From assembly GCF_013167455.1 (NCBI RefSeq), contig NZ_CP038328.1: 64,000 bases of DNA; one strand, written 5' to 3'. Positions 21,114 through 21,492 of this stretch are shown piece by piece; position 1 is the stretch's first letter; each line of letters starts with the position of its first letter. Origin of the DNA: Escherichia coli O157:H7 (lineage in GTDB: Bacteria > Pseudomonadota > Gammaproteobacteria > Enterobacterales > Enterobacteriaceae). The notes under the pieces are model-generated. The model saw nothing but the letters and a program-made list of their open reading frames with translations. It was not told the DNA's origin and did not search any database. Position numbers and translations under genes: made by a program.

Positions 21114-21492
21114 TGTTGAACTCCGTGTCAAAAGAAAAGGGTCAATCCCATAAACGGCAGATTGAAAACAATGATGTTATATTTTTTGCAAGTCTATTTA
21201 TGGTGCGGATGTCGTGTTTTTAATTGTAGGTGAGGTGATTTTTCATTAAAAAATATGCGCTTATGATTATTTTGTAAGAACACATTCATAATATTCATAA
21301 TGCTCGTGAATAGTCTTATAAATAATTCAAACGGGATGTTTTTATCTGCGTTACATTAATTTTTCGCAATAGTTAATTATTCCGTTAATTATGGTAATGA
21401 TGAGGCACAAAGAGAAAACCCTGCCATTTTCCCCTACTTTCAATCCTGTGATAGGATGTCACTGATGATGTTAATCACACTGACCTTACAGA

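Follow-up and report, generated by a model that had tools for sequence, protein, structure and literature searches.

The window, a stretch of 64,000 nucleotides that is 100% identical to many Escherichia coli O157:H7 chromosomes, contains the genes rpsI, sspA (18573-19211, + strand), sspB (19217-19714, +), dcuD (19757-21113, -), nanR, nanA and nanT in this local order. The dcuD gene encodes a C4-dicarboxylate carrier of the DcuC family and is a pseudogene in O157:H7. It is divergent from nanR (21493-22284, +), which encodes the repressor of the sialic-acid regulon and is followed by nanA (22406-23299, +) and then nanT. A bidirectional intrinsic terminator (AAAACAGGCC...GGCCTGTTTT, 19719-19743) lies between the convergent genes sspB and dcuD. 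The spacer under study comprises the 379 bp (21114-21492) between the K-12-type ATG of dcuD (21113) and the ATG of nanR (21493).

With a GC content of 33.0%, versus 51.8% for the 64-kb window, the spacer is as long and AT-rich as a preliminary description of this DNA had stated, and the runs quoted there are present at 21183-21204 and 21222-21255. The 379-bp stretch of lowest GC content in the 64 kb is found at 21040-21418 (31.1%), and the spacer itself ranks in the lowest 0.2% by GC among all window positions. Its centre (21217-21416, 200 bp) has a GC content of 27%. The profile of AT content and curvature that had been proposed as a check agrees with this picture: the spacer contains 12 A/T tracts of at least 4 bases, compared to 6.3 +/- 2.3 in composition-matched shuffles (p ~0.01), its AA/TT dinucleotides recur with a period of 10-11 bp (p ~0.006), and TpA steps are twice as frequent as in the window on average. 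At least ~200 bp of DNA far above the genome-average AT content, accompanied by curvature signals, were taken as the mark of an H-NS locus, and both properties are found here. The sequence is 99.2% identical between O157:H7 and K-12 MG1655, with three substitutions (21139, 21172 and 21193). A second AT-rich stretch was observed elsewhere in the window, at 10410-10788 (32% GC across its 379 bp, falling to 23.5% within 10504-10703). It adjoins an open reading frame of 156 amino acids (10819-11289, -) whose size and position suggest argR, and it may correspond to the H-NS region 3382046-3384152 mapped in aerobic K-12 (Myers 2013).

Compared to K-12, the O157:H7 dcuD gene carries a 2-bp deletion at 19897/19898 that frameshifts the last ~47 codons; the aberrant 3' end noticed in the preliminary description is real. 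There are also two in-frame deletions, of 6 bp at 20271 and 3 bp at 21024; the alignment of the window with K-12 MG1655 thus has three indels in dcuD and none in the flanking genes. The frame is disrupted in comparison with intact orthologues, as in a pseudogene, and the gene is labelled 'frameshifted' and a pseudogene by RefSeq (PGAP). Of 5426 complete E. coli genomes, 296 carry precisely this 2-bp-deletion allele, which is confined to the O157 lineage. As dcuD is intact in O55:H7 DEC5A, the frameshift must have arisen recently, in the O157:H7 lineage alone.

When species-representative genomes were scanned, DcuD orthologues turned up in 15 Citrobacter genomes and in three Escherichia lineages other than E. 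coli, at 87-98% identity. The order nanA-nanR-spacer-dcuD is common to all of these, with sspB beyond dcuD wherever the locus extends that far (the C. werkmanii sequence ends inside dcuD). In K-12, the compared Citrobacter species and E. whittamii, dcuD is an intact ORF of 455 codons (1368 bp). Between K-12 and three Citrobacter species plus E. whittamii, dN/dS amounts to 0.035-0.047 at a dS of 1.4-2.1 (saturated), values that are indistinguishable from those of nanR, nanA and sspB; with these ratios and intact ORFs, relaxed selection on the dcuD family as a whole was not detected. The coding GC content (51%) and GC3 (62%) are also like those of the neighbours. Since synteny, divergence and composition all match the neighbouring genes, dcuD and its position predate the Escherichia-Citrobacter split. 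Judged by these sequence comparisons, the gene is vertically inherited and under strong purifying selection outside O157. The view of dcuD as a decaying gene is therefore correct for the O157:H7 lineage, where the frame is broken, and incorrect elsewhere, where the ORF is intact with a dN/dS of ~0.04; decay is limited to the O157 lineage, and dcuD is neither a generally decaying nor a foreign gene.

The spacer was aligned for 16 sequences from Escherichia and Citrobacter, one per species. Its length (365-396 bp) and GC content (30-36%) are kept in all 16, and invariant blocks persist in it while synonymous sites are saturated. Three zones can be distinguished in the alignment. Zone A (21114-21300, no assigned strand) is proximal to dcuD, with 31% GC and 71-91% column identity. 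It contains the Shine-Dalgarno sequence of dcuD (GGAGT, 21121-21125, -), the invariant blocks GATGTTATATTTTT (21173-21186), TTTATGG (21197-21203) and TTATGAT (21261-21267), and a tandem pair of ATTCATAAT (21284-21301); TTATGA...TCATAA forms an inverted arrangement within the zone. A candidate -10 element of dcuD (TATAAC, 21178-21183, -) is proposed from its conservation, with a poor -35. The persistence of these blocks implies that they are putative functional sites. Zone A presumably holds the dcuD promoter together with activator sites, and the same blocks could instead serve distal start sites of nanR, described below. Zone B (21301-21425, likewise without strand) is a variable, indel-rich core that cannot be aligned between the genera. 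Within it lies a 12-bp tandem duplication specific to Escherichia, with GTTAATTAT at 21372 and 21384 (GTTAATTATTCC/GTTAATTATGGT, 21372-21392). The duplication is found in E. coli and E. whittamii, is present as a single copy in Escherichia sp. MOD1-EC7003, and is not conserved in Citrobacter. It resembles AT-rich sites of the ArcA, Lrp or H-NS type; an ArcA direct repeat in GTTAATTAT...GTTAATTAT was considered and rejected, as the spacing is 12 bp rather than 11 and reflects the tandem duplication. Zone C (21426-21492, +) comprises the 67 bp of the proximal promoter and leader of nanR and is conserved in Citrobacter. The spacer itself is neither decaying nor junk: its length, AT-richness and blocks are conserved, and it carries an active nanR promoter.

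That promoter is defined by an extended -10 element, TGaTAGGAT (21449-21457, +), which lies in zone C and is conserved in Citrobacter. Cappable-seq in EDL933 places the transcription start site (TSS) of nanR 29 nt upstream of its ATG (PMC10469882 Table S5). This maps to 21464 in the window, a G located exactly 7 nt past the TAGGAT hexamer. The sole strong sigma70 ChIP-seq peak locally in K-12, at 3372531, is at the nanR end (PMC3688515) and corresponds to ~21473 in the window. The TGn motif, the distance to the TSS and the occupancy by RNA polymerase are all those of a sigma70 extended -10 promoter, and zone C is the working nanR promoter. Further TSSs of nanR in K-12 are recorded in RegulonDB at -187 and -214 from the ATG (PMC10469882 Table S5); both are directed towards nanR (+) and fall in the AT-rich part of the spacer, at ~21306 and ~21279, respectively. 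The hexamers TTGTAA-18-CATAAT (21272-21301) fit the -187 TSS, and additional promoter-like hexamers are seen at 21240-21267. In an evolution experiment related to nan, selection repeatedly yielded IS5 insertions in the spacer, which were read as an effect on nanR; because such insertions recur there under selection, the spacer matters for nan regulation.

Scans for individual regulators were largely uninformative. In consensus scans, no site for FNR, CRP, ArcA, NanR, NarL, IHF, sigma54, Fur, TyrR, Lrp or NagC in the spacer beats composition-matched shuffles. The best spacer match to the FNR box TTGAT-N4-ATCAA, located in the nanR leader, deviates at 2 positions and is equalled in 115 of 300 shuffles. 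The H-NS nucleation motif TCGWTWAATT has 194 matches in the window versus 172 +/- 15 expected; the four best matches in the spacer all sit in zone B, with 2 mismatches each, and are neither significant nor informative.

To place the K-12 binding data on the window, coordinates of U00096.2 were anchored on the sigma54 site of Bonocora et al., whose centre (3370640) is 2253 bp from dcuD. The same 17-mer is found at 23356-23372 in the window, 2251 bp from the dcuD ATG, which provides a check on the mapping. On this scale the spacer occupies 3372512-3372890 and dcuD 3372891-3374258. H-NS ChIP-chip regions of K-12 extend over 3371957-3373402 in anaerobic and 3371888-3374315 in aerobic cells (Myers 2013, PMC3688515 Table S3). 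Both span the whole spacer and the 5' ~550 bp of nanR; within dcuD, H-NS covers the first ~510 bp anaerobically and the entire gene aerobically. Occupancy by H-NS in vivo is thus observed in K-12, whose spacer is 99.2% identical to that of O157:H7. Weak anaerobic sigma70 peaks of K-12 are also seen within dcuD, at 3373550 and 3373027 (20457 and 20980 in the window), and these may be spurious promoters inside the H-NS-covered gene. For FNR, no ChIP peak of K-12 lies in the spacer, the nearest one called being at sspA (3375694; PMC3688515). The FNR-regulated lists include dcuB-fumB and dcuC as activated, and dcuD is absent from them (PMC3688515 Tables S1, S3, S5 and S8). By motif, ChIP peak and expression, the spacer does not behave as an FNR-dependent dcu promoter. 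The published ChIP data to which the preliminary description had pointed therefore place H-NS, and not FNR, on the spacer in K-12.

The literature depicts dcuD as silent. A 'lack of evident expression' is attributed to Janausch & Unden 1999 where that work is cited in PMC6414658, and dcuD is called a 'silent gene' in PMC12886548. There is no row for dcuD in the comparison of EDL933 and RegulonDB TSSs (PMC10469882 Table S5); the spacer coordinates had no match in the K-12 Cappable-seq supplement (PMC4782308), and no TSS is on record for dcuD. Phenotypes of dcuD mutants in glycerol fermentation (PMC6414658) suggest that some expression does occur. When derepression in hns mutants was sought, neither Tables S7/S11 of PMC3688515 nor the supplementary files searched for PMC4288151 contained dcuD/b3227, and no report of it was found in the sources searched. 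The suggestion of a silenced, for example H-NS-bound, gene thus finds support in the occupancy of spacer and dcuD and in the reported silence; that H-NS causes the silence is what we infer from the two together, and H-NS spreading would be the most economical account of it.

A sigma54-dependent 'dcuD promoter' listed in older RegulonDB sets was examined and rejected as a feature of the spacer: it lies outside, and the ChIP-seq site assigned to dcuD is 2.25 kb away. The sigma54 motif TTGGTATGAAAATTGTA has an exact copy at 23356-23372 (-), in the nanA-nanT spacer, which is ChIP-seq site OA06 (Bonocora 2015). The motif points antisense through nanA and nanR toward dcuD, and OA06 is probably the origin of the RegulonDB entry.

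The spacer is present in 4373 of 5426 E. coli genomes. In 1040-1053 of the 5426 (~19%), dcuD and ~310 bp of the spacer are missing as a segment of ~1.68 kb, and these two classes leave none of the 5426 genomes unassigned. At the dcuD-less junction, sspB is followed by 107 bp and then nanR. This set includes EC958/ST131 and ATCC 25922, both of them phylogroup B2 strains. The segments compared were 19741-21425 of the window and 1716-1900 of L002 (E. coli EcPF7), and the left edge of the missing segment falls at the sspB/dcuD terminator. In the upstream 95 bp the dcuD-less allele has 49% identity to K-12, and in the first 66 nt of nanR it has 82%. The divergent tract begins at the sspB terminator and ends near codon 23 of nanR, where identity switches abruptly to 98%, and the tract is as distant from K-12 as Citrobacter is. 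The N-terminus of NanR is altered in this allele (MSPMNAFDPQAEDSTTT versus a 17-residue stretch). The pattern of divergence is less like a clean deletion than like recombination, in which a diverged dcuD-less haplotype would have replaced the resident allele. The segment boundaries are free of repeats, tRNA and mobility genes. Of the spacer, B2 strains keep a diverged version of zone C with the motif TGcTACGAT and nothing else, which implies that the AT-rich part is dispensable for nanR function in them. It follows that this part is tied to dcuD or to an optional distal control of nanR.

We consider it likely that the spacer is an ancestral shared divergent regulatory region that acts as an H-NS platform and silences an old, conserved dcuD. 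The nanR-proximal 67 bp would drive nanR from the extended -10 sigma70 promoter, and the remaining ~310 bp of curved DNA with 27-33% GC would nucleate an H-NS filament. This filament would extend from there across the promoter zone of dcuD into the gene itself and into the 5' part of nanR, and thereby keep dcuD silent in laboratory conditions, including anaerobiosis with C4-dicarboxylates. Since selection has kept the gene intact in most lineages, dcuD is presumably expressed in some condition, conceivably through an activator or anti-silencer that acts on the zone A blocks. In O157:H7, selection on dcuD would have lapsed, giving rise to the frameshift and the two in-frame deletions with the spacer almost unchanged. 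A bolder version, which we put forward only tentatively, is that the AT-rich spacer has been under selection since at least the Escherichia-Citrobacter split as a 'domesticated' silencing platform that holds a fully functional core transporter gene, dcuD, off except in some natural niche, and in which the zone A blocks (GATGTTATATTTTT, TTTATGG and TTATGAT...TCATAA) are activator or anti-silencer sites. Were this true, finding the factor would reveal the inducing condition and physiological role of DcuD, and loss of the module in B2/ExPEC strains, by allele replacement, and in O157, by frameshift, would mark niche shifts.

The spacer might instead be a crowded double promoter region, whose AT-richness and conserved blocks would reflect several nanR promoters (proximal at -29, distal at -187/-214) and a weak, activator-dependent dcuD promoter. 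Laboratory cultures would lack the specific activator or signal for dcuD, and H-NS would bind passively because of the AT content, to little regulatory effect. The three nanR-directed TSSs within the spacer fit this description, as does the coincidence of conserved blocks with the hexamers at 21240-21267 and 21272-21301; the candidate -35 of dcuD is poor, as is typical of activator-dependent promoters, and hns-dependent expression of dcuD was not found in the sources searched. However, a promoter consensus scan of the spacer returned 4 sites, which is the chance level (3.5 +/- 1.8 expected), and B2 strains run nanR on the proximal ~70 bp alone. Moreover, H-NS reaches 0.5-1.4 kb into dcuD, where the GC content is ~51%, in a manner that resembles filament spreading more than passive binding to AT-rich DNA. 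On balance we consider this arrangement unlikely.

Much less probable still are two further accounts. Conservation of the spacer would be explained if it encoded an unannotated small RNA or small protein, and zone A is indeed conserved despite saturated synonymous divergence; the -187/-214 TSSs would give nanR a long leader, and short ORFs of 21-36 codons occur. Yet the frame of these ORFs is not conserved, and their size and number are as expected for 379 bp of AT-rich DNA. Conservation comes in blocks, indel lengths are not divisible by 3, and nothing in the pattern points to a reading frame. An Rfam scan of 19000-23000 gave no match inside the spacer at E <= 1, and a terminator consensus scan found no terminator-like site within it, so that we give this account very little credence. 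It is equally improbable that dcuD and the spacer form a horizontally acquired xenogeneic cassette whose absence from B2 is ancestral. Against acquisition speaks the place of dcuD, which has nanR on one side and sspB on the other in three non-coli Escherichia and 15 Citrobacter genomes alike (in C. werkmanii the sspB side is beyond the sequence). So do a DcuD identity there of 87-90% and a dS that match flanking core genes, a neighbour-like GC content (51%; GC3 62%) and boundaries devoid of repeats, tRNA and mobility genes. The B2 allele, moreover, is a sharply bordered tract of genus-level divergence, as expected if B2 underwent replacement and not if the other lineages gained an insertion. 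Against these stand the patchy presence of the segment, which 1040-1053 of 5426 E. coli genomes lack, the AT-rich and H-NS-occupied flank, and the fact that the closest relatives of DcuD outside Enterobacteriaceae are only 42-46% identical (Negativicutes/Acidaminococcaceae; one short MAG contig, 75%). Assignment to the xenogeneic islands was rejected on the grounds of synteny, composition and dN/dS.

In the reading that we prefer, of an H-NS platform on an ancestral divergent region, the locus is ordinary: an AT-rich, H-NS-occupied divergent promoter that is already documented in public data, with the silence of dcuD on record since 1999. Its importance beyond a correct annotation is small. 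The zone A blocks do offer concrete targets for asking when a silent but conserved DcuD is used. Given the loss in O157:H7 and the B2-type absence in ~19% of genomes, strain background matters for studies of the dcuD and nanR promoters. In extraintestinal pathogens, the B2 changes to the nanR promoter region and the NanR N-terminus might alter how the sialic-acid regulon is controlled.

Several known systems invite comparison. The dcuB and dcuC promoters are activated by FNR, and dcuB is in addition controlled by DcuS-DcuR and NarL. The gene downstream of the spacer, dcuD, belongs to the same DcuC family and, like dcuB, has a long, AT-rich regulatory region. Unlike those promoters, the dcuD spacer has no FNR box above chance, no FNR peak and no FNR-dependent expression. 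With xenogeneic H-NS-silenced islands the locus shares AT-rich, H-NS-bound DNA, a presence/absence polymorphism and a lack of expression. It differs from them in that only the 379-bp spacer is AT-rich, dcuD having genome-average GC, and in that the locus is syntenic and vertically inherited; loss or replacement in B2 is the most plausible reading of the dcuD polymorphism.

The bgl operon has an AT-rich upstream silencer from which H-NS spreads into the coding region, and it is activated by IS insertion. The dcuD-nanR spacer likewise is curved, AT-rich upstream DNA, H-NS extends from the intergenic DNA into dcuD, and IS5 insertions into the spacer can be recovered under selection. As in cryptic loci of the bgl type, dcuD is silent in the laboratory yet has long been kept intact by selection. 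In contrast to bgl, dcuD is not known to be activated by hns mutation or IS insertion, the IS5 insertion having been read as an effect on nanR; dcuD also has no defined downstream silencer, and its spacer serves the expressed nanR as well. Finally, like other lineage pseudogenes of O157:H7, dcuD carries a frameshift that is fixed in the clone (296 genomes) and absent from O55:H7, and among these pseudogenes it is an ordinary example.
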